A stretch of 64,000 nucleotides of DNA from Candidatus Marinacidobacterales bacterium (GTDB lineage: Bacteria; Acidobacteriota; Vicinamibacteria; Marinacidobacterales; DATDRI01), in contig OZ245365.1 in NCBI GenBank assembly GCA_965226495.1, forward strand, positions 5,216,001 to 5,280,000, read 5' to 3'. The translations under genes and the position numbers were made by a program. Below, in pieces: positions 11,755-40,515 of this stretch. The number at the start of each line of letters is the position of its first letter. Position 1 is the stretch's first letter. The notes below the pieces were generated by a model, which saw only the letters and a list, made by a program, of their open reading frames with translations, had not been told where the DNA came from and did not search any database.

Positions 11755-13154
11755 AGGATGGCTTCCACGACGAGTGCGGTGTCTTTGGGATCTTCTCCCA
11801 TCCTGACGCGGCACGACTCACCTATCTTGGTCTCTACGCACTCCAGCACCGCGGCCAGGAGGCAGCGGGGATGGTCACCTCCGCACCGGATGGGCTTCGC
11901 ATCAAGAAATCCAAGGGCTATGTCGCCGATGTTTTCAACGAGCAGGCCTTGCAAGAGCTCGAAGGCTCCGCCGCCATGGGACACGTTCGCTACTCGACCG
12001 CCGGGGAAAACTCCGCCGTCAATGCGCAGCCGCTACTCATCGATTGCAAGTTCGGCGAGATCGCGGTGTGCCACAACGGAAACCTGGTCAATGACCAGGC
12101 CCTCAGAAAGGACCTGGTGGACCGCGGATCCATCTTCCGCACCAACAGTGACACCGAAGTTATCTTGCACCTTTTCGCGAGATCGGATCAGAAGGGAGTA
12201 GAGGACGCTCTCCTAGACGCGCTACGTCCGTTGGAGGGAGCCTTCACCCTGCTCTTCATCACCAAGGAGGCTCTCTACGGCGTTCGCGATCCGCGAGGGT
12301 TCCGCCCGCTCATTATCGGAAAGCTGGGCGATAGCTACGTTCTGTGCTCCGAGACCTGTGCCCTGGACCTCATCGACGCGACCTACGTCAGGGAGGTGGA
12401 GCCTGGGGAGCTGGTGGTCATCGACAAGAACGGACTCCGATCGATCCGTCCATTCGCGACTGAACAACCCCGCCAATGCGTCTTCGAGCACGTCTACTTC
12501 TCCCGGCCGGACAGCGTTGTCTTCGGCCGAAGCGTCCACGTTTCTCGTATCGAGATGGGAAAGCTCTTGGCACAGGAGACAGCGGTCGATGCCGATGTCG
12601 TGGTGCCGGTGCCGGACTCCGGTGTGGTCGCGGCGGTGGGCTACTCGATGGCGTCCGGCCTACCCCTCGAGTTCGGGCTCATCCGCAACCACTATGTGGG
12701 TCGCACGTTCATCGAACCGCATCAATCCATTCGGCATTTCGGCGTCAAAGTGAAGCTCAACCCCGTCCGCTCTGTGCTCGAAGGACGGAGGGTGGTACTG
12801 ATCGACGACTCCATCGTGCGGGGAACCACCAGTCAGAAGATCGTGGGGATGGTGCGAAACGCCGGAGCTCGCGAAGTCCATCTTCGTGTTTCCTCCCCGC
12901 CCATCACCGGTCCCTGTTACTACGGCATCGACACCCCGGAGAAGAAGGACCTTATTGCCGCCACTCATTCCGTCGAGGAGATCCAAGAGTTCCTAGCCGC
13001 CGACAGCCTTGCCTACCTTTCCCACGGCGCGCTCATGGCCTCGGTCCAAAACGGTTCCGATCAATTCTGCTCCGCCTGCTTCAACGGCAACTATCCGGTT
13101 CCGCTTACCGACGAAGCCCTCGGACAAAGAAAGCTTTTCGAGAAGACTCGTTAG
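11751..13154 (+). CDS. purF: Amidophosphoribosyltransferase (intact copy)
   Basis: ATGA overlap with purL. Propeptide then CGVFG, LQHRGQE, HVRYST, HNGN, PRPP loop [11 protein letters not shown], and Fe-S cysteines. Confidence 0.97.
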
Positions 13155-13409: not shown

Positions 13410-14075
13410 GTGCGCAAGTGGATCCCTAACCTGGTGACGGTGACCGGTATGGGGTGCGGTTTTGTTGCGATTCTGGTGGCCCATCGTGGTGCCGTCGATG
13501 CTTCTCTCTTCCTCATCCTGTGCGCAGTGATCTGCGACATCCTCGATGGCAAGCTCGCTCGGTTTCTGGGAGTCTCCTCGAGCTTCGGAGCCCAGCTCGA
13601 TTCGTTCTCCGACGTCATCGCCTTCGGCGTCGCGCCCGCGGTGATTCTATTCGAAGCATCGTTACACCGCCTAGGCTGGCTCGGCGCGGCCGCCGCCTTC
13701 CTCTTTCTCGCTATGTCGGCGGTCCGGCTCATCCGGTTCAATCTGGACGCATCCCTGCAAGAGCGACGGGATTTCTTCCGCGGTTTTTCCACGCCCACGG
13801 CGGCCCTGTATCTCATAAGCTTCATCGTAATGCGAGACCTGCTGCCGGCGTGGATAGGCGTTCTCTATGCCGCCGGTCTGGCGTTTCTCATGGTCTCCTC
13901 GCTCCCCGTCCCATCGTTCGAGGGAACCCGGCTCTCGCCCGCCTATCTCGTCGTCGCTCTGCTGAACACGCTGATACTTCTGCTCAGCCCCACCGTTTGG
14001 ACTTTCGCCTGGTGGAATTTATACGCGCTCTTCGTCCTATCTCTCGGCTACAAAAGGCGGCCGGCGGAAGGATGA
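13410..14075 (+). CDS. pssA: CDP-alcohol phosphatidyltransferase (PssA/archaetidylserine-synthase-like)
   Basis: IPNLVT start, DILDGKLAR-x8-G-x3-D-x3-D motif, RLIRFN and FxGF-TP. Confidence 0.85.
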   Translation: MRKWIPNLVTVTGMGCGFVAILVAHRGAVDASLFLILCAVICDILDGKLARFLGVSSSFGAQLDSFSDVIAFGVAPAVILFEASLHRLGWLGAAAAFLFLAMSAVRLIRFNLDASLQERRDFFRGFSTPTAALYLISFIVMRDLLPAWIGVLYAAGLAFLMVSSLPVPSFEGTRLSPAYLVVALLNTLILLLSPTVWTFAWWNLYALFVLSLGYKRRPAEG

Positions 14076-17000
14076 TCCTTCGGTGGCCCGTCAAAGACTC
14101 TAGACGCGTCATCCAGATGCTGGCTCAACTCAAACAAGCGGAGCCATGTGGGTATAACCCTCTCGAGAAATCGTTTCCTCTGGAACCGGTACAAGAGCGT
14201 GTACATGGGAAGCCGGCTCACCAGTAAATGCTGCAGCGAGAGCGTGAAGCCGCGCCGCCAGTCGCGCGCGTCGATCGAAGCTTCGACCTCTTCATCGAGC
14301 AACTGGCGATGAAGTGCTACGTAGTGCCCGAGCTCATCTTTCGTAGCAGCAGGTGAGAGCACGAAACAGAGGAGCTCGGCCAGATCGTGCTGCGGCGCTC
14401 CGAGCGTCGCGAGCTCCCAGTCATAGGCGCAGAGCTCGAGCCCGGCCCCGTTTCCGTGGCGAAAGGCGACGTTTCGGGAATTGAAGTCGTTGTGAATGAG
14501 GGTGCGTGGCATGCTCGTCAACTCCTCGGACCAGATGTCGACGTCGTCCACGGCTCGCTCTTGCGCCGCCACGAGCCCGTCTCCGGCCCAGTCTCGAAAC
14601 CAGGGACGCGCGTGCTCGGAAAGCGCTTGCCAGAGATCGCCCATCTCGTTCAAAGATGCGGAAGTTACGACGGGTCCCAGCCATTCTTGCCTTTCGAGCT
14701 CGGACTCGCGTCCATACCAGACCGAGTGGATCTTCGCGAGTCCCCGAATGGCGGCTTCCGTAGCAGCGCGTGACCAGCCATCTGCTTGGTCAGCGCTATC
14801 CAATAGCCAAAGCCCTTCCAGATCCTCAAGAGCGAGCGCCCAGAGCCCCTCGTCATCGTCGCGAACCGTGCCGTACAAGGCAGGCATGAAGTTTCGAAGC
14901 CGCGCGTCATCCTGCTCGTAAAGAGCCAGCTCTCGTCGATGACATAGCGTGAAGCTGAGCTTCCTCCCGAAACGATCGAAGAGCTCACCGAGACGGGTCG
15001 AGCACAGATCCGCCACGACCTGCGCCACGGCCAATACGTCGTCATCGGAGGGCTTCACCTTCAAGAACAAACGCAGTGTTCGCTCCTGCGCGTCGGACGT
15101 ACGGAATCGCGTCGTGGCGCGATAGAGGCCGGTCTCGCGCGTGCTGTACCAGGATGTTAGCTCGGTGAGAATGCTCTGCTCGACGCCCACTGGCTCGAGC
15201 TCGAGCTCGAGAATATCGAGGGAATCGTCGCCGAAATGCCGGCTGAGAACACTCTGGAGCCACTCGTCCACCGGGGCATCACGACCGTCACGGTCGCGGC
15301 GTCGAGCCGGCGCCACCAGAACACCACGATCGATGAACGACGTGTAAGCGCGATCGAGATAGCCGGGCCCGGAATCCGGGCAAGAGACGCGAAGACGTGC
15401 CAGCCGTCGATCGGTATTCTCCGTCAGGACCCGCGTCTTTCGGCAGTCCTCGAAGAGCTCGAGTGAAAAAACCTCTTGCCCGTCTTTCGCCGTCACTCGC
15501 TTGGACAAGAACGGCTGCAGATGATGGAGAGCGTGGTTCCGCGCGCTGGCACTTTCCTGAAGGCGGGACAACCACTCGCGATAGCCCGCGAGCTTCATCG
15601 GGTAGCCGAAAAGATTCATCCACAAGACCAGCTCGCGCCAGTGCCGCGGCTTCGGACTTCGAATGTGGTGGACGGCGAGAGCTCTCTCCTCCGGTTCTTG
15701 TGACAAGGCCACGACTGCCCGGCTCGCGTAGTCGACGGGACAGCCGTCGAGTTGCAGGTCGAGATCCGGGGCCATTTCCATCTCGATGCATCCTCTGACA
15801 AAACGCGAGAGGAAGTCGCTCTCGTTGCCGCGACCTCTGACATCGGAGCCCGTAAGCAGGGCGAGCCGATAAACGGATGCGCCGAGCCCGCGTTCGGAAG
15901 CTTCGCGAACCAGTGCTTCGGCCACGCACTTGCTCTCTGCGTAACCGAGCTGAAGATCTGGAAGGAAGGGCAGCACGTCGTCGACTTCGGCAAGCTCGCT
16001 CGCCCGCGTTGTGTAACAGACGCCGAGGGTCGAGACGAAGTGGAATCGCTTCGCCTTTCCGAGACAGGCCAATCTCAGGAGCTCCCGCGTGCCCAGAACG
16101 TTGACCTCACGCAAGTCGCGATACGGATAGACGAAATTGACCGCGGCGGCGTTGTGATAGATGGCGTCCGTTGTTTGCGCCAGCTCTTCGAACGCGTCGA
16201 GTCCTTCGCTCAAGTCTCCCTTCATGGGCACGATACGTCGCTCGAACGATGGACTCCACAGATCATGGGACTCGAGATTTCTTCGGAGGCGCTCCGAGCC
16301 GCCTTCCCCACGCACCAGGCAAACGATTTGCGCTCGAGTTTGCTCGAGAAGCTCTTTCAACAGATACGCTCCAAAGAATCCAGTGGCGCCGGTGAGAAGA
16401 ATCGAGCGCGGCTCGTCTCCCGAAATGACCCGCGGGGCGGGGCGAATGTCCTTCGGCAGACAGGTGTCCGCGAGCATCAGGGCGAGCTCAGAGCCCCTGG
16501 GCCTCGTCGAGCGACGCGCTCGCTGGCTGCCGGCGTTGCGGAGCTGGCCCTGCAATCGTTGCAGTGCTCCGGGCTCGAGAAGCTCCGCAATAGAAACATT
16601 CCGACCGACCCACCGCCCGATCGCCGTTTGAACCTCGACCACGCCGAGTGAATCCACGTAACGGGAGAGGGACGATCGAAGGTCGACCGATGCCAAGGGA
16701 GCACCGGAGAGCTGCGCGACCAGACTGCGGATCTTCGGTTCGATAGCATCGCTCTGGATCGCGTCGTCACCGTTCACGGAACGCGCGAGCATCTTCATTT
16801 TCCCGGCTGCGAAGGCGTCCCGGCAGGCCCAGCGCCTGAGCTTTCCGCTCGACGTCTTCAGTAGAGCCCGAGGCGGCACGAGGGCGATCGTGCCGAGCCG
16901 GAGCCCGTGACGCTCGAGGACCGCCGCTCGCAGAGATTGCATGATTTCAGAAGCGTATCGAGCTCGCTCCTCTTCGCTGGCGCTCATCATCGCCCGGTCC

Positions 17001-18499
17001 ACTTTGACCTCGGCGAGCACAGAGGCTTCCTCGCCATCGTCTCGAGACGTTCCAAATACGGCAACCCCGCCGCCTCGAACTCCGGGATGAGCCTCTTCGG
17101 CCGTCCACTCGATGTCACTCGGGGAGTAATTGACGCCGCGAACGATCAGAACGTCTTTCATTCGCCCCACGACGAAGAGCTCTCCGTCCAGGACGAAGCC
17201 AAGATCACCGGTGCGGAGAAAGGGACCTTCTTGCGTATCTTCCAGGACGGCACGAAACGTTCTCGTGCTCTCCTCGGGATCGTTCCAATAGCCTGCACAC
17301 ACACTTGGGCTTGCGAGCCATATCTCACCCACCTCGCCCGAGGCACAACGAGTGCGGTGCTCAGGGTCCGCGATCACAAGCTGGGTATCGCGATGAGGCT
17401 GCCCGCTTCCCACTCGAAGCACACCTTTCGCTGCATCGTTCGAAGGCGTGGCCTGGCCTTTTTCGAGGAGCTCCCGGTCCAGCTGGATCAGAACAGGCGA
17501 GTCCTCGTGCCTGCGGCTGGTGACGAGAACGGTGGACTCCGCGAGCCCGTAGACCGGATAAAAAGCCCGCCAATCGAAGCCACAGGGCCGGAACGCGTCC
17601 AGGAACGAGCAAAGCGTTTCCGCGCGCACCGGTTCTGCACCGTTATACGCTACGCGCCACGAGCGCAAATCCAGCGAGGCGCGCTCCGCTTTCGACGTCT
17701 TGCGGACGCAAAGCTCATAGGCGAAGTTCGGAGCGCCGCTGTTCGTCGCGCGATAACGTGAGATGGCGCTCAGCCACCGCAGAGGTTTCGTCAGAAACGC
17801 CCCCGGCGAAAATACATAAGCGGGAAAGCCGCTATAAAGAGGTTGCAAGATTCCGTCGATGAGCCCCATGTCGTGGTGCATCGGAAGCCACGAAACGGAA
17901 ACGCTACCGCGCTCGTTGCCTTCGGCCTCGGCGCCGTGAGCCAGGTTGTGCATCAGGTTTCCATGACTCACCATGACGCCGCGCGGGGCGGCGGTGGAGC
18001 CGGACGTGTATTGGAGAAACGCCAGTTGCCGCGCGTCGAGCGGTGTCTCCGTCCAAGCGCCCGCGAGCTCCGTCGGCACTGCATTGGACTCGACGAAGCG
18101 GACTGAAGAGCCCATTTCCGCACGAACGCTCTCGGGAAGCTCGTCGTCGCTGAGGATGACCTCGACCGCGGCGTCGCGGGCGATACCGCGTAAGCGCGGC
18201 AAGCTCTCTTGGCGGAGCACGGGGCTCGGTCGGTAGGCGGGCACCGCCACCGCACCCGCGTAGAGGCATCCGAGGAAGGCGCCGATGAACTCCAAGCCGC
18301 TATCGAGCGTCAAGAGAACGCGCTGTCCTTCGGCGCCAGCCTCCTGGAGCTTGGCCGCAATCGCGCGGGATCTTCTGTCGAGCTGGGCATAGGTGAAGCT
18401 CGCGCCCTCGACCTCGCCGTCGTCGAGAAAGGTGTAGGCAGGCTTGTCGGGAGAAGACAGCGACCGGCGCCGCAATACATCGACGATGGTGACTGTCAC
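14048..18499 (-). CDS. Multidomain fatty acyl-AMP ligase - ACP - thioester reductase - APH/choline-kinase-like phosphotransferase
   Basis: FAAL: AFLQYTSGST, YGLAES, FLRTGDLG, KTSSGKLRR. ACP: YVDSL with Ser617. Reductase: LLTGATGFFG, GYAESK. Kinase: LFLKVK, RELALY, LIHNDFNSRN, AYDWE. Confidence 0.9.
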   Translation of the reverse strand: MTVTIVDVLRRRSLSSPDKPAYTFLDDGEVEGASFTYAQLDRRSRAIAAKLQEAGAEGQRVLLTLDSGLEFIGAFLGCLYAGAVAVPAYRPSPVLRQESLPRLRGIARDAAVEVILSDDELPESVRAEMGSSVRFVESNAVPTELAGAWTETPLDARQLAFLQYTSGSTAAPRGVMVSHGNLMHNLAHGAEAEGNERGSVSVSWLPMHHDMGLIDGILQPLYSGFPAYVFSPGAFLTKPLRWLSAISRYRATNSGAPNFAYELCVRKTSKAERASLDLRSWRVAYNGAEPVRAETLCSFLDAFRPCGFDWRAFYPVYGLAESTVLVTSRRHEDSPVLIQLDRELLEKGQATPSNDAAKGVLRVGSGQPHRDTQLVIADPEHRTRCASGEVGEIWLASPSVCAGYWNDPEESTRTFRAVLEDTQEGPFLRTGDLGFVLDGELFVVGRMKDVLIVRGVNYSPSDIEWTAEEAHPGVRGGGVAVFGTSRDDGEEASVLAEVKVDRAMMSASEEERARYASEIMQSLRAAVLERHGLRLGTIALVPPRALLKTSSGKLRRWACRDAFAAGKMKMLARSVNGDDAIQSDAIEPKIRSLVAQLSGAPLASVDLRSSLSRYVDSLGVVEVQTAIGRWVGRNVSIAELLEPGALQRLQGQLRNAGSQRARRSTRPRGSELALMLADTCLPKDIRPAPRVISGDEPRSILLTGATGFFGAYLLKELLEQTRAQIVCLVRGEGGSERLRRNLESHDLWSPSFERRIVPMKGDLSEGLDAFEELAQTTDAIYHNAAAVNFVYPYRDLREVNVLGTRELLRLACLGKAKRFHFVSTLGVCYTTRASELAEVDDVLPFLPDLQLGYAESKCVAEALVREASERGLGASVYRLALLTGSDVRGRGNESDFLSRFVRGCIEMEMAPDLDLQLDGCPVDYASRAVVALSQEPEERALAVHHIRSPKPRHWRELVLWMNLFGYPMKLAGYREWLSRLQESASARNHALHHLQPFLSKRVTAKDGQEVFSLELFEDCRKTRVLTENTDRRLARLRVSCPDSGPGYLDRAYTSFIDRGVLVAPARRRDRDGRDAPVDEWLQSVLSRHFGDDSLDILELELEPVGVEQSILTELTSWYSTRETGLYRATTRFRTSDAQERTLRLFLKVKPSDDDVLAVAQVVADLCSTRLGELFDRFGRKLSFTLCHRRELALYEQDDARLRNFMPALYGTVRDDDEGLWALALEDLEGLWLLDSADQADGWSRAATEAAIRGLAKIHSVWYGRESELERQEWLGPVVTSASLNEMGDLWQALSEHARPWFRDWAGDGLVAAQERAVDDVDIWSEELTSMPRTLIHNDFNSRNVAFRHGNGAGLELCAYDWELATLGAPQHDLAELLCFVLSPAATKDELGHYVALHRQLLDEEVEASIDARDWRRGFTLSLQHLLVSRLPMYTLLYRFQRKRFLERVIPTWLRLFELSQHLDDASRVFDGPPKDHPSAGRLL

Positions 18500-19260
18500 A
18501 GCGCCGCCTCCTTCCCCGCCTGCTCAATCCGGGCTGCGTCCAGATAGCCGACGAAGCGCTCTCGAATCGCCGCTTTGTTCTCCTCGAGCTCCTCCAGCCG
18601 CCAGCTCTCTGTGTGGATAGGTGCATGGACGTGCACGTGCACCGTCCCCGGAAACACGCCGAATCCCTTTCCCGGATTGATCTCGGCCGGGATTTCGATG
18701 AACAGAGGAACGATAGGGGCTTTGAGATTGGTCGCTAAGTGAAACGTTCCCTTGTTGAACGGCCCGATCTGGCCCGTCGTAACGCGCGTTCCTTCTGGGC
18801 TCAGGAAGACGGACTCCCCGGTTCGGCGAAGAGTGCGCTCGGCCGCCTGGAAGCAGCGAATGCGCTTGTCAGGCATCGATTGAGGCGGCGTAAAGAAAGT
18901 GCCGATGAGCCACGCCATGAGCCCAAGAGGTGGGAGAAGCAAGAATCTGCGCTTCATAAAAAAGCGGGTGTTGGGAAGCCCGAGCGCAATGAGTATGAAC
19001 AGATCGATGGTCGAAGTGTGGTTCGCAACGTAAACCTTCTGCGATGTCGGAAAGGGATGTTCCTGGTGCACGACGAGACGGATGCCCCCGAGCCACAACA
19101 TCGTGTGGCCAACCACTTTCGCAATCACTTCCTGGCAAAAGCGGCGAGTGCGAAATAGCGTTGCGATCGAGATCGCGAGCATGAGAGCTCCCGCAAGTGT
19201 CATCAGGAGCATCGATGCGGCGAAGAGGAGCACCGAGCGCAGAAAATTAGGTTTCGCCAT
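18496..19260 (-). CDS. Lysophospholipid (PlsC-like) acyltransferase
   Basis: NHTSTID (HX4D), SPEGTR and FNKGTF motifs; 4-nt overlap with the FAAL gene. Confidence 0.9.
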   Translation of the reverse strand: MAKPNFLRSVLLFAASMLLMTLAGALMLAISIATLFRTRRFCQEVIAKVVGHTMLWLGGIRLVVHQEHPFPTSQKVYVANHTSTIDLFILIALGLPNTRFFMKRRFLLLPPLGLMAWLIGTFFTPPQSMPDKRIRCFQAAERTLRRTGESVFLSPEGTRVTTGQIGPFNKGTFHLATNLKAPIVPLFIEIPAEINPGKGFGVFPGTVHVHVHAPIHTESWRLEELEENKAAIRERFVGYLDAARIEQAGKEAAL

Positions 19261-20218
19261 TCGACTTCCTCTTTCTGCAGACAACGGTCTGCATCGCGAG
19301 ATTCAATTGCTTTTCGAACGCTAGAACGGGCAACGTCAAGATCTGCCCCAGGACATAGACATAGCCCCACTTCTGCAAGTCCAGTCCTCTGCCTTTCAAG
19401 AGCTTGAAGGCCGCTCCCGCGAACAAATAGAAGTAGGCGGGGAAAGCTCCGTAGGGCATGTAGTCCACGATGTCGAACCCCGCCCGCTCCATGAGCTTGA
19501 AGAGGTGTTCCTTGTCGTAGAGCGCCGTGTGTTGGGGCGCCTGGAGACCGGGCCACCGCTCGCGGAACAAGCCAAAAGTGATGCTATCGAGACGAGGCAC
19601 TTCGACAATGAAGTGGCCGTCATCCTTCATCACAGAGCGCGCCGTCTCGAGCGTGCGCAGCGGGTCGTAGTCGTGCTCGAGGAAATGCCACATCGTGATG
19701 AGATCGAAACTCCCCCCGCGAAACTCCTGTTCGTAGAAGAGGCCGCAGTGAAAATCGATGTGCTCGAATCCTTCGGCGCCCTCGAAATCCTTGAAGTCGA
19801 CGCCCGTCACACGAGCATCGTGTACGACTCGCATCTTGTTCAGGAAGGTTCCAGCACCACAGCCCACGTCGAGAATCTCGTTCGGATTACCCGGCTTCAG
19901 GTATGGCCGGACGATCTGCTCTTTCTTCCGATCGAGCTGGTCCATGACGTAGTTGTAGACGGGTGTCAGAGAGCCCCAGTCTCTCTTCTTCCGGTGCGCG
20001 ATGTACTCATCGTCGTAATAATCCTTGATGTGTTCGACGTCGATCCGCGGATGCTGATACGCGAGGCCGCATTCGGCGCAGCGGACGAAATGGAACCACC
20101 CAGGCTTTCCCGTGAGATCCTCCTGGGCGCTCACGAACGGTTCGCGCGCAGCGCTCGAGCAGTAATAGCAGCTCACCGGCTCGAAGATGGATGCGTCCGG
20201 AACGATCGTTGCGTTCAC
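19247..20218 (-). CDS. Class I SAM-dependent methyltransferase with N-terminal Zn ribbon
   Basis: CYYC...CAEC, ILDVGCGAG, MWHFLEH; GTGA overlap with the UbiA-like stop. Confidence 0.88.
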   Translation of the reverse strand: MNATIVPDASIFEPVSCYYCSSAAREPFVSAQEDLTGKPGWFHFVRCAECGLAYQHPRIDVEHIKDYYDDEYIAHRKKRDWGSLTPVYNYVMDQLDRKKEQIVRPYLKPGNPNEILDVGCGAGTFLNKMRVVHDARVTGVDFKDFEGAEGFEHIDFHCGLFYEQEFRGGSFDLITMWHFLEHDYDPLRTLETARSVMKDDGHFIVEVPRLDSITFGLFRERWPGLQAPQHTALYDKEHLFKLMERAGFDIVDYMPYGAFPAYFYLFAGAAFKLLKGRGLDLQKWGYVYVLGQILTLPVLAFEKQLNLAMQTVVCRKRKSNGET

Positions 20219-21012
20219 GCACGACCTCCGTAAGCACTCAACAGAACCAAGAAAGACAGCATGAAAGCCCCGCGACCCAGGCGAGCACAATCGTTCCTCC
20301 GCCGAAATTGCAGAAAGCTCGTGGCCGCGAGCGCGAGGGCGAGGCCACTGAGAGAGAACAGGACGACGCTAGAGACTTCGTTCGTGAGGGACACCCAGGC
20401 CGCGAGAACCCAGATAGTCAGATCGGCAGCTACGACGACCTTGATCCCCTTGAACTGATGTGTCCTTTTGTCGTGCAGCGGTTCGTAGAGGGCGAACGTG
20501 AAGAACACGAGGGCCAGCGTCCCGAGCAGGAGCTGGTCGACCGGCGCCGACGCGAGTCGCGCACCGACGTACGCAAAGAACGGGTACTTGAGAAGCACGA
20601 TGTGGTACGCCACGGCGCGCGGCGCACGGTCGGCCAGCCAGCGGTACCAGAGGAAAAAGAACAGAAGCGCGACGAGATAAAGGAGCTGCAAATCCCGCTG
20701 TCCCAGTAGAAGGAGCAGAACGACTCCCACCCCAGCAACCCACAACCTGTGAAACGAAGTGAGGGAGCTGACGCGGGAAAGCACGCGCTCGGGAAACGCG
20801 ACACGATCGGTCTTCACGTCACTCAGATCGTCCCAGAGGCGGAACTGAAAGAGGAGAACCACGACCGTAACCAAAGCTCTTGGACGAGCCGCGGCATCGC
20901 CGGCCAAAAGGCTCGGAATCGCGAGAAACAGAGTGACCGGTACGAACAGCGTCAACGGGAACCGCTCGCGGCGGTATCTCAGAATCGACGAATCACTCGA
21001 CCAGATGGACAC
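20215..21012 (-). CDS. UbiA-superfamily prenyltransferase-like membrane protein (RERFP subfamily)
   Basis: Multiple TM helices; Asp-rich motif FRLWDDLSDVKTD...PERVL (analogue of NDxxDxxxD...RPL) and a second acidic motif YEPLHD. Confidence 0.75.
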   Translation of the reverse strand: MSIWSSDSSILRYRRERFPLTLFVPVTLFLAIPSLLAGDAAARPRALVTVVVLLFQFRLWDDLSDVKTDRVAFPERVLSRVSSLTSFHRLWVAGVGVVLLLLLGQRDLQLLYLVALLFFFLWYRWLADRAPRAVAYHIVLLKYPFFAYVGARLASAPVDQLLLGTLALVFFTFALYEPLHDKRTHQFKGIKVVVAADLTIWVLAAWVSLTNEVSSVVLFSLSGLALALAATSFLQFRRRNDCARLGRGAFMLSFLVLLSAYGGRA

Positions 21013-23539
21013 GACCCAAATCTCCGTCGACCTCGAGCGCGCGACCGTCCGTGATCAGACGCATGGCGTCCTTGACGCCTACGACCGAGGGAATACCGAA
21101 CTCGCGCGCCAGAATCGCTCCGTGGGAGAGGAGCCCACCTCGCTCCAGGACGAGCCCTTTGATGAGAGGAAACGCAGGACCCCAGCCTGGATCCGTTTGC
21201 CGCGTCACGAGGACGTCACCGCCTCGCAAACGCTGGCACTCCGTCACGTCGTGGAGGATCGCAGCCGGTCCTCGCACCTTGCCGGTGCCTGCACCGATAC
21301 CCACGAGAGTCTGCGGGTCTGCGGCGCCCGCGGCCCGAGCCTCCTCATCGAGCCCGTTCTCATCAAGGTGCTCGCCGACGGGCAACACGAAATGCTCCGG
21401 CGGCTCGATGCCGCCGAGCCGCTGGTGCTCGCTCTTGCGCTTAGCGATCTCGGGAAACCTCTCGCCTCCGGAGAGGAAACGATCAAGCTCCTGCCACGTC
21501 AGAAAGAACGCGTCGTCCGGGTGCTTTAACGTGCCCTGTGCGACGAGCTTCTCTCCGATGGCGAGCACAATCCGGCGGCAGCGACTGTACAGAAGTGCCT
21601 GCTTGAGACGGGCCCGTTCGCGTAGCGAGATCGCCCGGTGTGTCCACGAGAGGAGTCGAGGGAAAACCAGGGACTTCTTCAGGCTGAGCTGCGCGCGCAC
21701 GCGCTCGGTCGCCGCGACGCGACGCGACGCCTGGTCAGCTAGCGTCTCGCGCGGTGCGCGCGCCTCCGAGGCGACGTAAGGCTTCAAGAGGTCGAGCAAG
21801 CGCTCGGGGTTTTCCTGAAAGCTGGGCACCGTCATCATCAACTCTCCCGAGCAGCGGAATCCCCAGCGTTCCAGATATGCGTCGACGGTACGGTGAAATG
21901 GAGCGAAACGCTCTTCGTTTTCCAAAGCGCGAAGGATCTCGCCGCTGTCTTTGTTCCGAAACAGCGCCGCGAGCTCCGAATCCTGGCGAACGAGCCGCGA
22001 TAGCTCCCAGAGGTCCAACGCCGGTTGAGCACTGACGACATCGGGAAGCCCCTTCAACAGATCCCCAAGTTGGCGGTCGTCTCCGCCAAGAAGTGATTTG
22101 AGCGCGCCGCTCGTTACCATCGCGGCCGCATCGGCGAGAGATGCCCCGAGCCACCGGAAGCGACGAATTTCGAGAAACGCTCGTAGAGCGCGATGCTGGT
22201 CTCTAAGGGAGCGATCTCCCAGACGATCCGGGTGCCATTCGCTCGCGAAGCGATCAACCGTCATTTCGAACTCGTGGACGCGTCGGTCGAAGCCGACATA
22301 GAGCCAGCTCGTCTTGAGGCAGATCCACGCAAGCTCCATGGCCTGCCGCAATCTCGAATCTTTCTCGACCGAAGTCTCGCCTTCGGCACCATCCCGCCGC
22401 GTACCCACGAACTCGTCGAAAGAGCGGGTCAACCACTCACCGAAAGGAACCGCGCGGAGCACTCGGTGAACGTTTGTGACGTTGTAGTAGATCCGAGCTG
22501 CGTGGACGCCGATGATGTTTCGGAAAGCGCCGTCCGCGGCGTCGAGGCGTCGCTGGGTAATCCCGAATGCACGGCCGAGGTTTCGAAAATAGTGCTCGTA
22601 GCCGACGGCAGCGACGGAGTATAGAAACGGCGTCACTGGTCCGGGGAAATTCTCGTTGATGTTCGCGTTCGACCAGACGACACGCTCTGCTACCCGAGCG
22701 TTTCGAGTTGGAACCGTGATCGGCCTCGACTGCACGAGGTAGACGCGTCCTTCGGGATCGATCGTCCATTCGATGTCCTGAGGTCCACCGAATCGTAGCT
22801 CGAGCTCGAGTCCGAACCTTCCGAGCTCTTCGAGCTGTTTCTCACTAAGGAGTGCGTCACGGTCTTTGCCCGGAGGTTTGGTCATCCGAAGGCAGCTCAG
22901 GTCCTGCCGCCTCAACGAGAAACGACCCGGGTCGGCGCGGCCCGACACCAGAGCCTCACCGGCACCGTAAACGTATTCACCGAGGAGCTCTTCCGATGCC
23001 GAGGGCGCTCTCGTGAACAAGACGCCGGAGATCGACGCGTCAATTTGTTGCTGGACAATGACGCCCACGCCTCGCAGTCGCGCGCCGCGCGCGAGCTGGT
23101 AGGAAAGCGAGCGCTCCGACCAGGCGGACGCCCAACATGCTTTGAGCGCTTGCTCGAGTCCGTCCGCGCTCACGACGTCGGGAAACGAGTCAAGGAGGCC
23201 GGCGTAGGACGACTCGCTCCCGTCCTCGCCGACCCCGGAGCTTCGTACGATGACTCTCTGCCCCTCGAGATGCTCTTCCCAGAACCGGACGAGCTCCTCG
23301 CGCAGCGCGAGCGGCAGCCTCGAGCCGAGAAGGACCTCTCGAATCTCGGCCCCGTTCGCTACCGAATCGAGCGATCTCTCCAGCATGAATGCCTCGAGCA
23401 CTTCGTGAGGTACGACGAATCCCGGAGGCACTGGCAAGCCTTCGCCCAACATTCGAGAAAGGCGGGCCGCCTTTCCGCCCACGCGCTCGACATCGCATGC
23501 GTCCGAGAGCGGAAGAAGTCCCGCGACGCTCAAGCCCAC
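20993..23539 (-). CDS. PEP-utilising dikinase, rifampin-phosphotransferase-like architecture (ATP-grasp / substrate domain / C-terminal His swivel)
   Basis: GGKAARL, VRSSGVGEDG..SYAG, QDIEW, QSRPIT; C-terminal TDPGW...GGLLSHGAILAREFGIP. No pyruvate-binding barrel. Confidence 0.9.
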   Translation of the reverse strand: MGLSVAGLLPLSDACDVERVGGKAARLSRMLGEGLPVPPGFVVPHEVLEAFMLERSLDSVANGAEIREVLLGSRLPLALREELVRFWEEHLEGQRVIVRSSGVGEDGSESSYAGLLDSFPDVVSADGLEQALKACWASAWSERSLSYQLARGARLRGVGVIVQQQIDASISGVLFTRAPSASEELLGEYVYGAGEALVSGRADPGRFSLRRQDLSCLRMTKPPGKDRDALLSEKQLEELGRFGLELELRFGGPQDIEWTIDPEGRVYLVQSRPITVPTRNARVAERVVWSNANINENFPGPVTPFLYSVAAVGYEHYFRNLGRAFGITQRRLDAADGAFRNIIGVHAARIYYNVTNVHRVLRAVPFGEWLTRSFDEFVGTRRDGAEGETSVEKDSRLRQAMELAWICLKTSWLYVGFDRRVHEFEMTVDRFASEWHPDRLGDRSLRDQHRALRAFLEIRRFRWLGASLADAAAMVTSGALKSLLGGDDRQLGDLLKGLPDVVSAQPALDLWELSRLVRQDSELAALFRNKDSGEILRALENEERFAPFHRTVDAYLERWGFRCSGELMMTVPSFQENPERLLDLLKPYVASEARAPRETLADQASRRVAATERVRAQLSLKKSLVFPRLLSWTHRAISLRERARLKQALLYSRCRRIVLAIGEKLVAQGTLKHPDDAFFLTWQELDRFLSGGERFPEIAKRKSEHQRLGGIEPPEHFVLPVGEHLDENGLDEEARAAGAADPQTLVGIGAGTGKVRGPAAILHDVTECQRLRGGDVLVTRQTDPGWGPAFPLIKGLVLERGGLLSHGAILAREFGIPSVVGVKDAMRLITDGRALEVDGDLGRVHLVE

Positions 23540-24114
23540 CGCCGCTTCACACCCATCGAGAACAACGCCGCGCTAAACAAGAGATGAATCCCGGGACCGA
23601 TGAGAAGGACGAACAACCACATCTTCCAGGGCGTGGGAACCACGAAGCTCATCACCACCAGCATTCCCACGATCGAGTCCAACCGGTCGCCAAAAAAGCA
23701 AACGAGTCGGGCCAGACGGCTGCGCGGTGCACAGCCCGGTGGCACGCTGAGCTGTCGTTTCAGGAAGGAGTTGGGCATTTCCCCGAGCATGAAGCCGAAG
23801 CTCGCGAGCCCTCCAAGAGCAAAGAACTGGAAACCGGTGAGCGGCCAAATGCCGTCGGTCCACGTGGGATGCAAGGTAGCGAGCAAGTGATGGAGGCCTG
23901 CGAACGCGAGGGCCGCCGCGGGCACCATGACGATGAAGCCTCGGGGCGTTTTATTGTCGCCGAAGATACGCTTTCCGCGAAAGCTTCGTCCGCCGTCGAG
24001 CGGCGTCGTGAAACGCCGCGACAATGCCGTTCTCAGCCAGATTGTTTGAACAATGCCGGCAAGCGTGAAAGCGACGACGACAAAGAGCGCGCACGAGAGC
24101 GGGTCGAGATGCAT
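23530..24114 (-). CDS. CDP-archaeol synthase (CarS/DUF46)-like cytidylyltransferase
   Basis: PLDGGRSFRGKRIFGDNKTPRGF, GEMPNSFLKRQLSVPPG and DRLDS are CarS-family motifs. ATG 24114 overlaps the desaturase stop (TGATG). Confidence 0.85.
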   Translation of the reverse strand: MHLDPLSCALFVVVAFTLAGIVQTIWLRTALSRRFTTPLDGGRSFRGKRIFGDNKTPRGFIVMVPAAALAFAGLHHLLATLHPTWTDGIWPLTGFQFFALGGLASFGFMLGEMPNSFLKRQLSVPPGCAPRSRLARLVCFFGDRLDSIVGMLVVMSFVVPTPWKMWLFVLLIGPGIHLLFSAALFSMGVKRRWA

Positions 24115-25076
24115 CACACCTCGGAGCTGGACTGGGTTCGATTCTGGAACATGAAGACTTCTGCGGGTAGCCGTCGGGCGGCGAGAATCCAGCGCCACCA
24201 GACGGCAATATTCTTGGGCTGGTAGTCGACACGGGAAAGGAAGTAGCCTGGAATCTGTGGATGGATGTGGTGAAGCTCGTGCGCGTCTACGTTGGCCAGA
24301 ATCCATTGCGAGAACCAACGCGGGAAGCGAAGTGAGCGCGTGAACACCTCCTGCTCGCGAGCCGAGAAAGGTCGGACCGATTCGTTGCCGCTGACCTTCA
24401 TCGGAACGTGGGTGTGCTGACTCAGAATGAGGGAGTCGATAAAAACCATACTCAGCAGAACTCCGACGCCGAGACTGCGCAGCAAGGTCGAGAACCCAAA
24501 GGCGTAGATGACGCCCACATAAAGGGCGGCAAGTCCCAGAATGTTCACCGCGATGCGCTTTCGAAGGGGAGAAGCGGGAAAGAGTTTTTGCAGCCGCGGC
24601 CAGTTCCAGAAGTTATTGATGCGGTAGACGAGAACGAAGATGGGAATCCAGAATCGCCAGCAAACGTTCATCAACACACGTTCTGCACGAGAGAGCTCTC
24701 GCGGCACGAGCGTCGCCGTCGTGGGATCCAGATCCTGCCAACCAGTCCAGTGGTGATGCTGGTTGTGGATGGCCGTCCAGGCGTGAAAAGGGATGAAGCT
24801 GAAAACGCCCGCGATTTGGCCCGCGAGGTGGTTCCACCGAGGGGTTCGAAAGAGAATTCCATGCCCGCATTCGTGGAGGAGCACAAACCACTGCACGAGC
24901 GCAAGAGCCAGGAGAGCTTGCCCGACGACCCAAGCAATGGGATGGGGGCGCCCTGCGAGGGCGATTCCGGCAACCGTTAACAGGAGGCAACCGAAGAAGT
25001 AGAGTCCTCCGAACGTGTCGCGAGGCCGGAGGTGGATGACCTCGGCAGGTAGCGGGGCGTTCAATTCCAATGACAT
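24114..25076 (-). CDS. Membrane fatty acid/lipid desaturase
   Basis: His boxes HECGH, HNQHH and HELHH; TM segments; SD AAGGAGAGG. Confidence 0.9.
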   Translation of the reverse strand: MSLELNAPLPAEVIHLRPRDTFGGLYFFGCLLLTVAGIALAGRPHPIAWVVGQALLALALVQWFVLLHECGHGILFRTPRWNHLAGQIAGVFSFIPFHAWTAIHNQHHHWTGWQDLDPTTATLVPRELSRAERVLMNVCWRFWIPIFVLVYRINNFWNWPRLQKLFPASPLRKRIAVNILGLAALYVGVIYAFGFSTLLRSLGVGVLLSMVFIDSLILSQHTHVPMKVSGNESVRPFSAREQEVFTRSLRFPRWFSQWILANVDAHELHHIHPQIPGYFLSRVDYQPKNIAVWWRWILAARRLPAEVFMFQNRTQSSSEV

Positions 25077-25123
25077 CAGCGATGCCTCTCCTTCGAAACT
25101 TACTACCTTCCCCTTGGGGAATG

Positions 25124-25153
25124 GGTTTACACTGAGAGGCTTGCGCGTGTCAA
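25124..25153 (-). promoter_or_regulatory. Candidate sigma70 promoter of the lipid operon
   Basis: TTGACA (minus strand, 25153-25148) followed 17-18 nt later by a weak -10 (GTAAAC/TAAACC), upstream of the desaturase. Confidence 0.35.
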
Positions 25154-25170
25154 CACCGTGAAACGAATGG

Positions 25171-26229
25171 CTAAGGGATCTCGCAGAGCAGGATGTGCTC
25201 TTCGTAAACGGAGCCGATCAAGAGCCACTTCTCATAGACGGCAGCGACGCTCGACGTGGACAAATCGTCGCCCAGGCTCAGGAACTCTTCTCGAAATGCG
25301 CCAGACGTTGGATCGAAAGAGAGGACTTGTGACGGCGAGAAGCTCTTGGCGTCGCGGGCGTTCTTCAAAAACGCAAGCATTTGCGGATGAGCGCCGATCC
25401 AGACCGTGCCGTCGCTTGCGACCTCGAGATTATCCACGCCGGTTCCCGTATCGTAGCTTTCTCGAAAGGACAACGAGCCCGTGTCGGGATCCCGGTCGTA
25501 CCAAAGGACGGCGCGCCCGGTCGTCGATGCGACGTAGACGGAGAGGCCGTCCGGCGAGATCGTGATTCCGTTGGGGTAGGCGACGTTTTCGGCCACGACG
25601 CGGAACGCGTTCCCGTCGTAATAGACGATGTCGGATTCGGCGCGTCTCAGGAACTCCTCGGCTGTTCGTCGAAAGCCGTTTTGATAGCGATGATCGTTCG
25701 TGGCGTAGAACTGTCTCGGACCCACCGCAAGGATATCGTTCGGACTCCGCAGGTGGTCGTCGGTCAGGGTCTCGCGATGCAGGAGCGAACCCTCTCGAAC
25801 GTCGAAGACCTCGATCGCGTGGCTCCCCCTGGGATGGCTGACGGCAAAGAGCGCCTCCTGGCCCTCCGGGCCTCGAAAGAGGCTCAGGCCGTGCGGTTGA
25901 AACTCGATATCGAGCTCGCCGGTCAGCTTCTTTGGTTTGGGCTCCGCGCTTCCGAGCTCGAGCGCGTAAATCGCTCCTCGCACCCGCTGTCCCGTTCGCT
26001 GCGCCCGCCGATCCGTCGACGAGATGAACGCAATCCCAGTCTCCGGATGCACGGTAATGTCTTCCGGTCCCGGCATGCCGCCGACGGGCCGGCAGCTGCC
26101 CTCGAAGTGAGGCTCGATCGTCTTGAAATGCCCGGCTGCCTGGAGAGCGTCGAACGCGAACCACGCGAGAATCCCGAGCAACACGAACGCGACGAGCGCT
26201 AGCTTCCTCATCGATTCAGCGGATAACAT
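25171..26229 (-). CDS. Paraoxonase/arylesterase-like six-bladed beta-propeller hydrolase, membrane anchored
   Basis: N-terminal TM; GPEDI, PHGLS, SPNDI, TNDH, PNGI and VDNL match PON/SMP-30 motifs. Confidence 0.85.
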   Translation of the reverse strand: MLSAESMRKLALVAFVLLGILAWFAFDALQAAGHFKTIEPHFEGSCRPVGGMPGPEDITVHPETGIAFISSTDRRAQRTGQRVRGAIYALELGSAEPKPKKLTGELDIEFQPHGLSLFRGPEGQEALFAVSHPRGSHAIEVFDVREGSLLHRETLTDDHLRSPNDILAVGPRQFYATNDHRYQNGFRRTAEEFLRRAESDIVYYDGNAFRVVAENVAYPNGITISPDGLSVYVASTTGRAVLWYDRDPDTGSLSFRESYDTGTGVDNLEVASDGTVWIGAHPQMLAFLKNARDAKSFSPSQVLSFDPTSGAFREEFLSLGDDLSTSSVAAVYEKWLLIGSVYEEHILLCEIP

Positions 26230-26296
26230 ACTACAAGTGCGCCGATGGACCAGCCTACCTAGCTCAGTCTCCTGCCGCCTTCAACCATCGCACACT

Positions 26297-27100
26297 CGCC
26301 ATGGGACACGTCCGCTACTCGACCGCCGGGGAGAACTCGGGCGTCAATGTTCAGCCGTTACTCATCGATTGCAAGTTCGGCGAGATCGCCGTCTGCCACA
26401 ATGGGAATCTGGTCAATGATCAGGTCCTCAGAAAAGACCTGGTGGATCGTGGATCCATCTTTCGCACCAACAGCGATCCGCGCGGATTCCGCCCGCTCGT
26501 TATCGGAAAGCTCGGCGATAGCTACGTTTTTTGCTCCGAGACCTGTGCCTTGGATCTGATCGACGCGACCTATGTTAGGGAGGTCGAACCGGGGGAGCTA
26601 GTGGTCATCGACAAAAACGGACTCCGATCGATAACCACTACGTGGGTCGCACATTCATCGAACCACATCAATCGATTCGGCATTTCGGCGTGAAAGTGAA
26701 GCTCAACCCCGTGCGCTCTGTGCTCGAAGGACGGAGGGTGGTGTTGATCGACGACTCCATCGTGCGCGGAACCACCAGCCAGAAGATCGTCGGCATGGTA
26801 CGGAACGCCGGCGCCCGAGAAATCCACCTTCGCGTATCCTCCCCGCCCACCACCGGTCCCTGCTACTACGGCATCGACACCCCAGAGAAGAAGGACCTTA
26901 TTGCCGCCACTCATTCCGTCGAGGAGATCCAAGAGTTCCTAAGCGCCGACAGCCTCGCCTACCTCTCCCACGGCGCGCTCATGGCTTCGGTCCAAAACGG
27001 AGCGGATCAATTCTGCTCGGCGTGTTTCAACGGCAACTATCCAGTCCCGCTTACTGACGAAGCCCTCGGGCAACGAAAGCTCTTCGAGAAGACTCGCTAG
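26297..27100 (+). pseudogene. purF: purF relic 2 (5'-truncated, two internal deletions)
   Basis: Colinear with 11972-13154. Lacks the N-terminal Cys. In-frame deletion NSD|PRGF near 26475 and a frameshifting deletion near 26632. Confidence 0.93.
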
Positions 27101-28652: not shown

Positions 28653-29552
28653 TCCATTAGAAGGAGCCTTCAGCCTGCTCTTCCTCACCAAGGACGCTCT
28701 CTACGGCGTTCGCGACCCGCGAGGATTCCGCCCCCTCGTTATCGGAAAGCTCGGCGATAGCTACGTTCTGTGCTCCGAGACCTGTGCCTTGGATCTGATC
28801 GACGCGACCTACGTCAGGGAGGTGGAGCCTGGGGAGATCGTGGTCATCGACAAGAACGGACTCCGATCGATCCGCCCATTCGCCACCGAACAACCCCGCC
28901 AGTGCGTCTTCGAGCACGTCTATTTCTCCCGGCCCGATAGCGTCGTCTTCGGCCGAAGTGTCCACGTCTCCCGTATCGAGATGGGAAAACGCTTGGCACA
29001 AGAAACTGCGGTGGATGCCGATGTCGTGGTGCCGGTGCCGGACTCCGGTATGTTCGCGGCGGTGGGCTACTCGATGGCCTCGGGCATTCCTCTCGAGTTC
29101 GGACTCATCCGCAACCACTACGTGGGTCGCACATTCATCGAACCACATCAATCGATTCGGCATTTCGGCGTGAAAGTGAAGCTCAACCCCGTCCGCTCGG
29201 TGCTCGAGGGACGGAGGGTGGTGCTGATCGACGACTCCATCGTGCGGGGAACCACCAGCCAGAAGATCGTCGGCATGGTACGAAACGCCGGCGCTCGAGA
29301 AGTCCATCTCCGTGCTACTACGGAATCGACACCCCGGAGAAGAAAGACCTCATTGCCTCCTCTCATTCCGTCGAGGAGATCCAAAAATTCCTCGGCGCCG
29401 ACAGCCTCAGCTATCTCTCCCACCGCTCGCTCATGGCCTCGGTCCAAAACGGAGCGGATCAATTCTGCTCCGCCTGTTTCAACGGCAACTACCCGGTTCC
29501 GCTTACCGACGAAGCCCTCGGGCAAAGAAAGCTCTTCGAGAAGACTCGCTAG
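28653..29552 (+). pseudogene. purF: purF relic 3 (5'-truncated, frameshifting deletion near 29313)
   Basis: Colinear with about 12227-13154; lacks the SSPPITGP segment. Confidence 0.93.
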
Positions 29553-33135: not shown

Positions 33136-33142
33136 TTTGACC

Positions 33143-33211
33143 TCCAATTCCATCCATTTAGAGGATAGTACCGCTCCATCCAATTGTCCATCCATTTCCA
33201 TCCAATTGTCC
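33143..33211. repeat. Tandem TCCATCCA(A/T)TT repeats upstream of fic
   Basis: About four 11-12 nt units at 33149, 33175, 33187 and 33197. Confidence 0.65.
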
Positions 33212-33266
33212 GGCAACGGCGCCTGGCCTTGATTGGACTTGCGAAATAGGGATGCACTGTGTTAAT

Positions 33267-40396: not shown

Positions 40397-40515
40397 GATC
40401 ACATAATATCAAGAAGTTACGAAGTAGGGATTGTGGGTCTCAAGTATTACTTGAGATCTTGTTTCACGTTGAACCCCGAGTAACACCGGGAACGTTGATG
40501 GCCCTTCGAAGGATC

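Follow-up and report, generated by a model that had tools for sequence, protein, structure and literature searches.

A seven-gene block conserved across bacterial phyla encodes a candidate pathway for a fatty-alcohol-derived phospholipid, with UbiA-fold and CarS-like enzymes

RESULTS

A compact seven-gene block downstream of purF

We examined a stretch of 64,000 nucleotides from the genome of a Candidatus Marinacidobacterales bacterium (Acidobacteriota; contig OZ245365.1, positions 5,216,001 to 5,280,000), hereafter called the window and numbered from its first nucleotide, in which seven minus-strand open reading frames (ORFs) overlap or abut one another between 14048 and 25076. In the direction of reading, this block encodes a desaturase family protein, a CarS-like cytidylyltransferase, a dikinase, a UbiA-like membrane protein, a methyltransferase, a PlsC-type acyltransferase, and a fusion of a fatty acyl-AMP ligase (FAAL), an acyl carrier protein (ACP), a thioester reductase domain (R), and an APH-type kinase (Table 1). 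From low to high coordinates, the ORFs overlap by 4, at most 38, at most 76, 20, 10, and 1 nucleotides (nt) when the longest ORFs are used. Assignments come from Pfam and NCBIfam scans of the window proteins, each score being judged against the cut-off of its model, and from structure prediction where stated. The seven-gene set, its operon-like packing, and its place between purF and purF relics are as an earlier note on this DNA had them.

TABLE 1 Positions of the block, its flanking genes, and the other features of the window named in the text
Feature	Coordinates	Strand	Evidence or remark
FAAL-ACP-thioester reductase (R)-APH-type kinase fusion	14048..18499	-	1483 aa; Pfam, NCBIfam, motifs
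PlsC-type acyltransferase	18496..19284	-	262 aa; PF01553 1.2e-21
Class I S-adenosylmethionine (SAM) methyltransferase	19247..20290	-	Methyltransf_23 1.4e-23
Divergent UbiA-fold integral membrane protein	20215..21012	-	265 aa; AlphaFold (AF2) model and structure comparison
Rifampin-phosphotransferase-type dikinase	20993..23539	-	848 aa; PPDK_N 5e-49, PEP-utilizers 4.5e-22
CarS-like CTP-dependent cytidylyltransferase	23530..24114	-	194 aa; PF01864
Membrane di-iron fatty-acid desaturase family protein	24114..25076	-	320 aa; PF00487 1.5e-24
pssA-like CDP-alcohol phosphatidyltransferase	13410..14075	+	Convergent with the operon; PF01066 4e-17
PON/arylesterase-like six-bladed propeller	25171..26229	-	Arylesterase 9.5e-21, SGL 4.4e-9
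Intact purF	11505..13154	+	Left border of the variable region
purF relic 1	26292..27100	+	About 90% nt identity to purF nt 468-647, 782-941, 1183-1650
GNAT gene	27626-28141	-	Between the two purF relics
purF relic 2	28653..29552	+	88% nt identity to purF nt 723-1650
Lactamase_B_3 gene (metallo-beta-lactamase fold), split	30209-30670 + 30604-31407		Two overlapping ORFs
Fic/DOC	32077-33216	-	
OsmC	34634-35206	-	Beside HxlR
HxlR	35351-36058	+	
Metallo-beta-lactamase-fold gene	36311-37426	-	
Omp85/POTRA-like gene	38408-39592	+	
PIN gene	39596-40099	-	

Conservation of the block across phyla

The gene arrangement is far beyond chance; the same block is present in 70 loci of other genomes, collected by a pattern scan with an alignment of the UbiA-like protein and limited to one genome per species. 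Contig ends cut 38 of these loci, and 32 have full 10-kb flanks. Greedy ORF calling in GC-rich loci gave shadow ORFs; partner counts among these UbiA-like-seeded loci were therefore taken from tblastn with the window proteins (E ≤ 1e-6) and from Pfam. A dikinase gene adjoins the UbiA-like gene in 69/70 loci, and the methyltransferase (63/70), PlsC (58/70), desaturase (55/70), and CarS-like (53/70) genes follow in frequency. Some part of the fusion is found in 53/70 loci, with R and APH in one high-scoring segment pair (HSP) in 43 and the FAAL part in 30. Order and strand are alike in 62/70. Of the 32 full-flank loci, 28 have all six partners and four do not: L016 lacks the CarS-like gene, L021 and L041 show no match to the reductase or kinase, and L033 is a variant described below.

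Carriers span at least nine phyla. Those in the Acidobacteriota are of the Marinacidobacterales type or belong to the Thermoanaerobaculia, Vicinamibacterales, and Bryobacteraceae/Solibacteraceae, and further carriers are placed in the Planctomycetota, Nitrospirota, Nitrospinota, Myxococcota, Gemmatimonadota, “Candidatus Binatota,” Bdellovibrionota, and Pseudomonadota (Massilia, Accumulibacter, Sideroxydans, and gammaproteobacterial bins). Marine acidobacterial metagenome-assembled genomes (MAGs) are the nearest relatives that bear a name, and cultured carriers include Massilia glaciei B448-2 and Hyalangium rubrum. A lack of co-occurrence in other genomes had been named in the earlier note as an outcome that would refute its pathway; this is clearly not the case, as the genes prove to be co-occurring and collinear over these phyla. 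Closer to home, the CarS-like gene is present in 3 of 40 relatives and in none of seven members of the same family, and all three positive genomes have the same block in the same order.

Beyond the block, the neighbors vary by lineage and include sulfatase, flagellar, glutathione S-transferase, and regulatory genes. Because the flanks differ among lineages, we take the unit to be desaturase, CarS-like, dikinase, UbiA-like, methyltransferase, PlsC, and (FAAL-ACP-)R-APH, which a CDP-alcohol transferase often accompanies. Both flanking genes that the earlier note had listed, the PON-like gene 95 nt upstream of the seven-gene run and the convergent pssA-like gene, are in place, but the former falls outside the conserved set: it adjoins the block in 2/70 loci, both of close relatives, and is a local, lineage-specific addition, not a block member.

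Among the loci assigned to the Planctomycetota, a 5.1-kb contig (L071, 529-5096) binned as Candidatus Kuenenia carries the desaturase, CarS-like, and dikinase genes and the start of the UbiA-like gene; it is short and may be mis-binned. Ether-linked ladderane lipids are a known feature of anammox bacteria.

A reductase-kinase fusion and a second, phosphotransferase-type kinase

In the fusion protein, Pfam recognizes an AMP-binding domain at residues 11-405 (6e-62), NAD_binding_4 at 702-929 (2.5e-54), and APH at 1206-1377 (2.3e-9), the kinase part also matching EcKL (4.5e-7). The R domain passes the thioester reductase model TIGR01746 (288 bits versus a cut-off of 213), and the FAAL part scores at most 431 bits against the NCBIfam FAAL models, below the 775-bit cut-off of that subfamily model. 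Thus, the parts by which a FAAL-ACP-R module is recognized are all present: a FAAL adenylation domain, a carrier serine (Ser617, within DSLG), and a thioester reductase with Rossmann (GATGFFG) and YxxxK (YAESK) motifs. The kinase part has the motif HNDFNSRN, and a search with the APH domain returned only a weak match to ACAD11 (E 0.007).

The dikinase is built of an ATP-grasp domain (PPDK_N, 18-281), a central domain, and a C-terminal swiveling His domain (PEP-utilizers, 773-842) with the catalytic-His motif GGLLSHGAILARE. Its nearest solved structures (5fbs/5fbt/5fbu and 5hv1-3; E 9e-65) were deposited as “phosphoenolpyruvate synthase” and are, we take it, structures of rifampin phosphotransferase (RPH). 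Enzymes of that type phosphorylate or activate a substrate oxygen via a phospho-histidine. The NCBIfam list for the dikinase includes Rph, RedH, and PigC models, all under cut-off, and the protein lies below equivalog level for both Rph (NF041857, 287 versus 999) and the best phosphoenolpyruvate (PEP)-synthase model (476 versus 883).

The 3' end of the dikinase gene overlaps the start of the UbiA-like gene by 20 nt. The suggestion, made in the earlier note, that two kinases act in succession on a fatty alcohol gains support from the retention of the R-APH fusion, from the rifampin-phosphotransferase type of the second kinase and the overlap of its gene with the UbiA-like start, and from a variant locus (below) in which an HMG-CoA-reductase domain keeps the kinase.

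A divergent UbiA-fold membrane protein

The UbiA-like protein matches no Pfam family at E ≤ 0.01, PF01040 included, and its sole NCBIfam match is the prenyltransferase PRK13592 (E 7.6e-4). A PF01040 search of the whole genome finds three canonical UbiA genes elsewhere, this one not among them; a distant member of the family (P0015) bears a precomputed PF01040 match. A word-seeded search gave only 20 relatives, and a profile search gave 1102 representatives at E ≤ 1e-3, of which 336 remain at a threshold of E ≤ 1e-30. Longer fused forms were looked for, and the one found, a 969-aa protein with a coiled-coil part, was uninformative.

The AF2 model (pLDDT 91.6) supports an all-helical membrane UbiA fold. 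Foldseek matches it to UbiA-fold structures with probability 1.00 and TMq 0.63-0.70, the value of 0.70 being to the digeranylgeranylglyceryl phosphate (DGGGP) synthase 6m31. In the VIA comparison, the highest score is to ApUbiA (4od5; Z 16.8, rmsd 3.5, 242 aligned residues), with which the DGGGP synthase (DGGGPS) entries 6m31 (Z 16.6) and 7bpu (Z 16.5) tie within Z 0.3; these lie within about 1.7 of UBIAD1 (8djk, Z 15.0) and of a membrane phosphoribosyltransferase (PRTase; 8j8j, Z 15.1). A further PRTase entry, 8j8k, scores Z 14.0. Soluble prenyl synthases reach at most Z 12.6.

The UbiA superfamily has two Asp-rich motifs that bind Mg-diphosphate, NDxxDxxxD and DxxxD. Invariant in the present family are R58, D61, D62, R76, K142, Y143, and E177, and D65, D69, and D181 are near-invariant. 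Together they make up a first motif DDxxDxxxD-R (D61, D62, D65, D69), a KY pair, and a second motif ExxxD (E177, D181), which fit a predicted Mg-diphosphate site.

The CarS-like protein and the CDP-alcohol transferase

The most likely start of the CarS-like protein is the ATG at 24114, which shares one base with the desaturase stop codon; a longer ORF reaches 24318. It scores 48.4 bits against PF01864 (cut-off 22) and conserves the family motifs FGDNKT, NSFxKR, and DRxDS. As a single sequence it finds no match in the Protein Data Bank (PDB), and a profile is needed: profile A3 (31 sequences) aligns with CDP-archaeol synthase 5GUF at E 1.4e-7 over residues 35-189/38-171, nearly the whole protein, with GD(N/G)KT, SFxKR, and D(R/Q)xD in register. 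The AF2 model (pLDDT 94) has 5GUF as its sole clear Foldseek match (probability 1.00, TMt 0.62). Profile and model together support homology to CarS. The subfamily is large, numbering 2073 clusters or more, of which many carry the automatic name “CDP-archaeol synthase,” and PF01864 is found in all 120 listed relatives.

The earlier note had remarked that the window holds neither a polyprenyl synthase nor a geranylgeranylglyceryl phosphate synthase (GGGPS). The Pfam scan detects no polyprenyl synthase in the block, and the second absence extends further than claimed, as PcrB/GGGPS (PF01884) has no match in the block or anywhere in the 6.34-Mb genome, which is 94.8% complete.

The pssA-like protein bears the D..DG..AR...G...D...D motif and scores 106.7 bits against TIGR00473, whose cut-off is 107. 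By tblastn, the window protein has matches in 16/70 loci; all-vs-all clustering places a CDP-alcohol phosphatidyltransferase upstream or downstream of the block in 32/70, checked with Pfam in L014 and L038. The genome has eight CDP-alcohol phosphatidyltransferase genes, the pssA-like one included, and the identical scores of two of them (C1:1900795 and C1:3596238) suggest a duplicated gene.

Acyltransferase, methyltransferase, and desaturase

The acyltransferase has the PlsC motifs NHTSTID and SPEGTR, and the desaturase has the His boxes HECGH, HNQHHH, and HELHH. The methyltransferase, whose true start is probably downstream of 20290, has the motif ILDVGCGAG and an N-terminal CxxC...CxxC element. 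It is the best conserved partner (49-85% identity in all but two of its 63 matches), yields generic class I matches only against the PDB and ESM Atlas, and has UbiG/UbiE-type enzymes as its weak best named matches. Its tree groups mostly by phylum (10 label changes versus a minimum of 8), with the four-row clade of the window standing apart from the main acidobacterial clade of 13 rows. Desaturase and methyltransferase are both kept in 31 of the 32 full-flank loci, L033 being the sole exception.

Variant loci

Three kinds of variant bear on the functions of the enzymes, as follows.

(i) R-APH occurs without the FAAL-ACP part in many loci of the proteobacteria and Nitrospinaceae and in some of the acidobacteria. 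In these, R presumably takes acyl-CoA or acyl-ACP directly.

(ii) A deltaproteobacterial MAG (L033, 3823-10567) has a minimal module, in which a 3-hydroxy-3-methylglutaryl (HMG)-CoA-reductase domain (Pfam 4e-102) is fused to the cluster kinase (858 aa; the kinase is 44% identical to the APH part in the window). A CdsA-type gene (PF01148) stands in the CarS-like position, with the dikinase and UbiA-like genes next to it; methyltransferase, PlsC, and desaturase are missing, and a convergent gene for a short-chain dehydrogenase/reductase (SDR) and one for a type II thioesterase follow. HMG-CoA reductases carry out a four-electron reduction of a thioester to an alcohol. The non-homologous swap of the SDR-type R domain with retention of the kinase is the best evidence here that the alcohol made by the reductase is the substrate of the kinase, and the swap of CarS for CdsA argues for a cytidylyltransferase role at that position.

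(iii) In a Bdellovibrionales MAG (L046, 9812-13256), a single ORF of 509 aa combines profile positions 12-166 of the UbiA-like protein (its N-terminal half) with the methyltransferase, and the kinase stands alone (400 aa) with no reductase adjoining. This UbiA-like/methyltransferase fusion, seen in a single MAG, may be real or an assembly artifact.

Genomic setting

The genome is assembled as a single contig. Synteny with a genome of the same genus (G001) ends at the 3' end of purF (13154) and resumes at 40439, which makes about 27 kb (13155-40438) extra in the present genome; a second same-genus genome (G002) has other DNA after purF. Besides the block, the extra DNA holds both purF relics and the accessory genes listed with them in Table 1. 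The purF 3' flank looks like a recurrent insertion site. Relic 1 of purF has internal deletions, and the split Lactamase_B_3 gene is probably a frameshift. No integrase or transposase was found among the ORFs of at least 150 aa between 27 and 41 kb. The island setting, the rarity of the block in its phylum (below), and the methyltransferase tree together indicate that the block is an accessory, transferable module.

DNA near-identical to positions 18496-25076 of the window occurs in 20 public sequencing runs from eight studies with eight coded organism labels; none of the 20 is recorded as RNA.

DISCUSSION

A candidate route to a fatty-alcohol-derived phospholipid

What is established for the block is which domains its proteins contain, their folds and families, their catalytic motifs, and a gene order conserved across phyla. 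It is likely, in our view, that the product of the operon is a CDP-activated phospholipid with a phosphorylated unit derived from a fatty alcohol. Our preferred reading is more specific and more tentative, with a probability of roughly 0.4: the block would be an operon complete in itself and horizontally mobile, whose product is a glycerophospholipid built from a fatty alcohol, most likely through an ether link. A glycerophospholipid end product is indicated by the CDP-alcohol transferase beside the block (32/70 loci) and the PlsC gene within it (58/70).

We infer every substrate, the order of the steps, and the product of this pathway, which might run as follows. FAAL would adenylate a free fatty acid and load it onto the fused ACP, the R domain would reduce the thioester to the primary alcohol, and the fused APH-type kinase would convert this to an alkyl phosphate. 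The phospho-histidine of the dikinase would then add a second phosphate, giving an alkyl (or alkenyl) diphosphate, and the UbiA-fold enzyme, holding the diphosphate in its Asp-rich, Arg, and Lys site, could link the chain to a hydroxyl group on glycerol phosphate or lyso-phosphatidate, with ether formation of the kind catalyzed by archaeal DGGGP synthase. PlsC would acylate the other position, the CarS-like enzyme would use CTP to form a CDP-lipid, and the pssA-like CDP-alcohol transferase would add serine or another head group. Desaturase and methyltransferase may tailor the chain or head group after transfer, e.g., by forming a vinyl ether or methylating the head group; alternatively, they may act before transfer and produce an allylic, methyl-branched “pseudo-prenyl” donor.

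Several points weigh against this reading. The ether-forming step, on which the scheme turns, is one that we infer, and it is also the most demanding. To our knowledge, UbiA donors are all allylic prenyl diphosphates or phosphoribosyl pyrophosphate (PRPP), and a saturated alkyl diphosphate is unprecedented; as a saturated primary alkyl diphosphate offers no stabilized cation, the step needs either new chemistry or prior desaturation. Taking Z scores within about 1 as tied, the fold cannot separate a DGGGPS-like protein from a PRTase-like one or from aromatic prenyltransferases. The “archaeal-type” labels that the earlier note gave to the UbiA-like and CarS-like proteins hold at the level of family and fold (Z 16.8; E 1.4e-7 to 5GUF) but not at curated cut-offs: the UbiA-like protein misses PF01040 and has ExxxD in place of DxxxD as its second motif, and the CarS-like protein scores 64.6 bits against the 148 of the CarS equivalog NF003114 (CDP-2,3-bis-(O-geranylgeranyl)-sn-glycerol synthase). 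There is no gene for forming glycerol phosphate in the block, and the scheme leaves the roles of the retained methyltransferase and desaturase unexplained. The Nitrospiria MAG loci L013, L016, and L027 do without the CarS-like gene, the dikinase following directly after the desaturase. Sampling of 300 other genomes of the same phylum gave three with the UbiA-like gene (E ≤ 1e-10; only eight candidates scored per genome), so that the block is rare there and is not a core membrane pathway of the phylum. Every reaction, like the product, is putative.

A bolder version of the preferred reading, which we hold to be unlikely, would have the operon turn a fatty acid into a mimic of a prenyl diphosphate: reduced, twice phosphorylated, and made allylic and methyl-branched by a desaturase acting near the head end and by the methyltransferase, the chain could be ionized by the UbiA-like enzyme and joined by it to glycerol phosphate through an ether, leaving CarS and the CDP-alcohol transferase to finish the lipid. 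If true, this would add a third route to ether phospholipids, oxygen-dependent, non-isoprenoid, and built of archaeal-type enzymes, and would be a candidate source of orphan alkyl glycerol ethers in soils and sediments.

Alternative products

The same genes could make a lipid that has no glycerol. An alkyl phosphate might be converted by the CarS-like enzyme to a CDP-alkanol and then by the CDP-alcohol transferase to an alkyl-phospho-serine or similar compound; or else it might serve as a mimic of polyprenyl phosphate, to which the UbiA-like protein, in the manner of the mycobacterial membrane phosphoribosyltransferase, adds phosphoribose from PRPP. The conserved R-APH fusion suits either version, the PRTase entries 8j8j and 8j8k (Z 15.1 and 14.0) stand near the top rows of the structural comparison, and the minimal L033 module consists of reductase-kinase, cytidylyltransferase, dikinase, and UbiA-like protein, with no PlsC. 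However, PlsC is found in 58/70 loci and is hard to place unless there is a glycerol or hydroxylated backbone, the second kinase would be redundant, and the block contains no phosphatase or epimerase of an arabinan-type route. CarS and CdsA enzymes are, moreover, known to us solely with phosphatidate-type substrates. Taken jointly, the two versions strike us as improbable.

There is also a way around the non-allylic donor, in that the UbiA-like enzyme could draw on housekeeping polyprenyl diphosphate and prenylate an acceptor made by the other enzymes, such as an alkyl- or acyl-glycerol phosphate, yielding a mixed prenyl/acyl phospholipid, with the kinases acting on other hydroxyls, e.g., in alcohol recycling or backbone phosphorylation. 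Besides removing that objection, this would agree with a UbiA fold whose diphosphate-binding motif is intact and with the natural action of CarS homologues on prenylated glycerol phosphates (the 5GUF match). Yet it leaves unexplained the linkage of reductase, kinase, dikinase, and UbiA-like genes, which holds even in the minimal L033; no prenyl synthase was found in the block of the window or in the nine loci whose flanking ORFs were scanned, nor GGGPS/PcrB in the genome. We rate this explanation, with its reassigned kinases, as a poor prospect.

Less probable again is an alkylated small molecule or quinone-like metabolite, in which the UbiA-like enzyme would attach a long-chain diphosphate to a small head group, aromatic or otherwise, that the methyltransferase then methylates, with the desaturase acting as a hydroxylase. 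The patchy, island-like spread is typical of specialized metabolites, the weak UbiG/UbiE-type matches of the methyltransferase point the same way, and phytol salvage and tocopherol synthesis likewise combine a UbiA enzyme with a methyltransferase and with kinases for an alcohol. Against this, there is no aromatic-precursor gene in the block, and PlsC, the CarS-like protein, and the recurrent CDP-alcohol phosphatidyltransferase are phospholipid enzymes. Finally, we give next to no credence to the notion that the genes are mere neighbors sharing no pathway, as their coding regions overlap and they are collinear in 62/70 loci over at least nine phyla with unrelated flanks.

Significance

Non-isoprenoid ether-lipid synthesis in aerobic bacteria is only partly understood, and the debate on the “lipid divide” has bacterial homologues of archaeal lipid enzymes at its center. 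The block offers a compact, widespread candidate pathway of seven to nine genes with cultured carriers. Should the UbiA-like enzyme indeed use a fatty-acid-derived diphosphate, the chemistry of the UbiA superfamily would widen, and new gene markers for environmental ether lipids would become available. Even with another lipid product, a function would be gained for several large unannotated families, among them the UbiA-like one (at least 1102 representatives) and the CarS-like one (at least 2073 clusters).

Comparison with known systems

In phytol salvage, an alcohol is converted to its monophosphate and then to its diphosphate by two sequential kinases and is passed to a UbiA-type transferase; the pathway, which feeds tocopherol and phylloquinone, also includes a methyltransferase. 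It is, thus, a precedent for the logic of alcohol, two kinases, diphosphate, UbiA enzyme, and methyltransferase, but the plant kinases are of other families and an aromatic acceptor there receives an allylic isoprenoid, whereas the kinases here are of APH and rifampin-phosphotransferase types and their partners are phospholipid enzymes. RPH and the PigC/RedH-type PEP-synthase-like enzymes share the domain order of the dikinase and are its best PDB and NCBIfam relatives; the dikinase differs from RPH in its score (287 versus the Rph cut-off of 999) and in the coupling of its gene to the UbiA-like gene in 69/70 loci.

The ether-lipid routes cited in the literature consulted are elb, alkylglycerone-phosphate synthase (AGPS), and the PlsA/Ger type. 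Myxobacterial elb resembles the block in having domains for fatty-acid activation and reduction, an ACP, and the function of a PlsC-type acyltransferase, with ElbD described as FAR-ACS-ACP-acyltransferase, ElbB as HAD-like, and ElbE as NAD-epimerase-like in the accessible portion of the report (PMC9131029). That portion names no kinase, dikinase, UbiA, CarS, methyltransferase, or desaturase (PMC9131029). In the block, the acyltransferase has a gene of its own and the reductase is instead joined to a kinase in one protein; the distinction from the ElbD route drawn in the earlier note is borne out to the extent of that description, with no ElbD-type fused acyltransferase and no ElbB or ElbE domains in the block. 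A 2026 preprint on ether-lipid clusters of sponge symbionts deals, in its available part, with elb-like clusters only and has no mention there of UbiA, archaeol, PEP, or phosphotransferase. Two further candidates, the Pbo cluster (PMC8473136) and the ebo cluster, are unrelated, judging from the portions of the sources at hand. A full-text literature search, with subscription journals, supplements, and MIBiG outside its range, returned no account of a cluster of UbiA-like, CarS-like, dikinase, and reductase-kinase genes, and as a system the operon matches no described pathway found in the literature searched.

The archaeal ether-phospholipid pathway (DGGGP synthase, CarS, and archaetidylserine synthase) differs from the block in several respects. 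The genome has no GGGPS/PcrB and the block has no prenyl synthase (no search aimed at glycerol-1-phosphate dehydrogenase was made); FAAL-ACP-R and two kinases would supply the chain, starting from a fatty acid; PlsC, desaturase, and methyltransferase are additional; and the archaeal-type proteins fall under the curated family cut-offs. The two nevertheless have in common a UbiA-fold transferase, a CarS-family cytidylyltransferase, and a CDP-alcohol phosphatidyltransferase, together with the implied order of ether formation, CDP activation, and head-group attachment.

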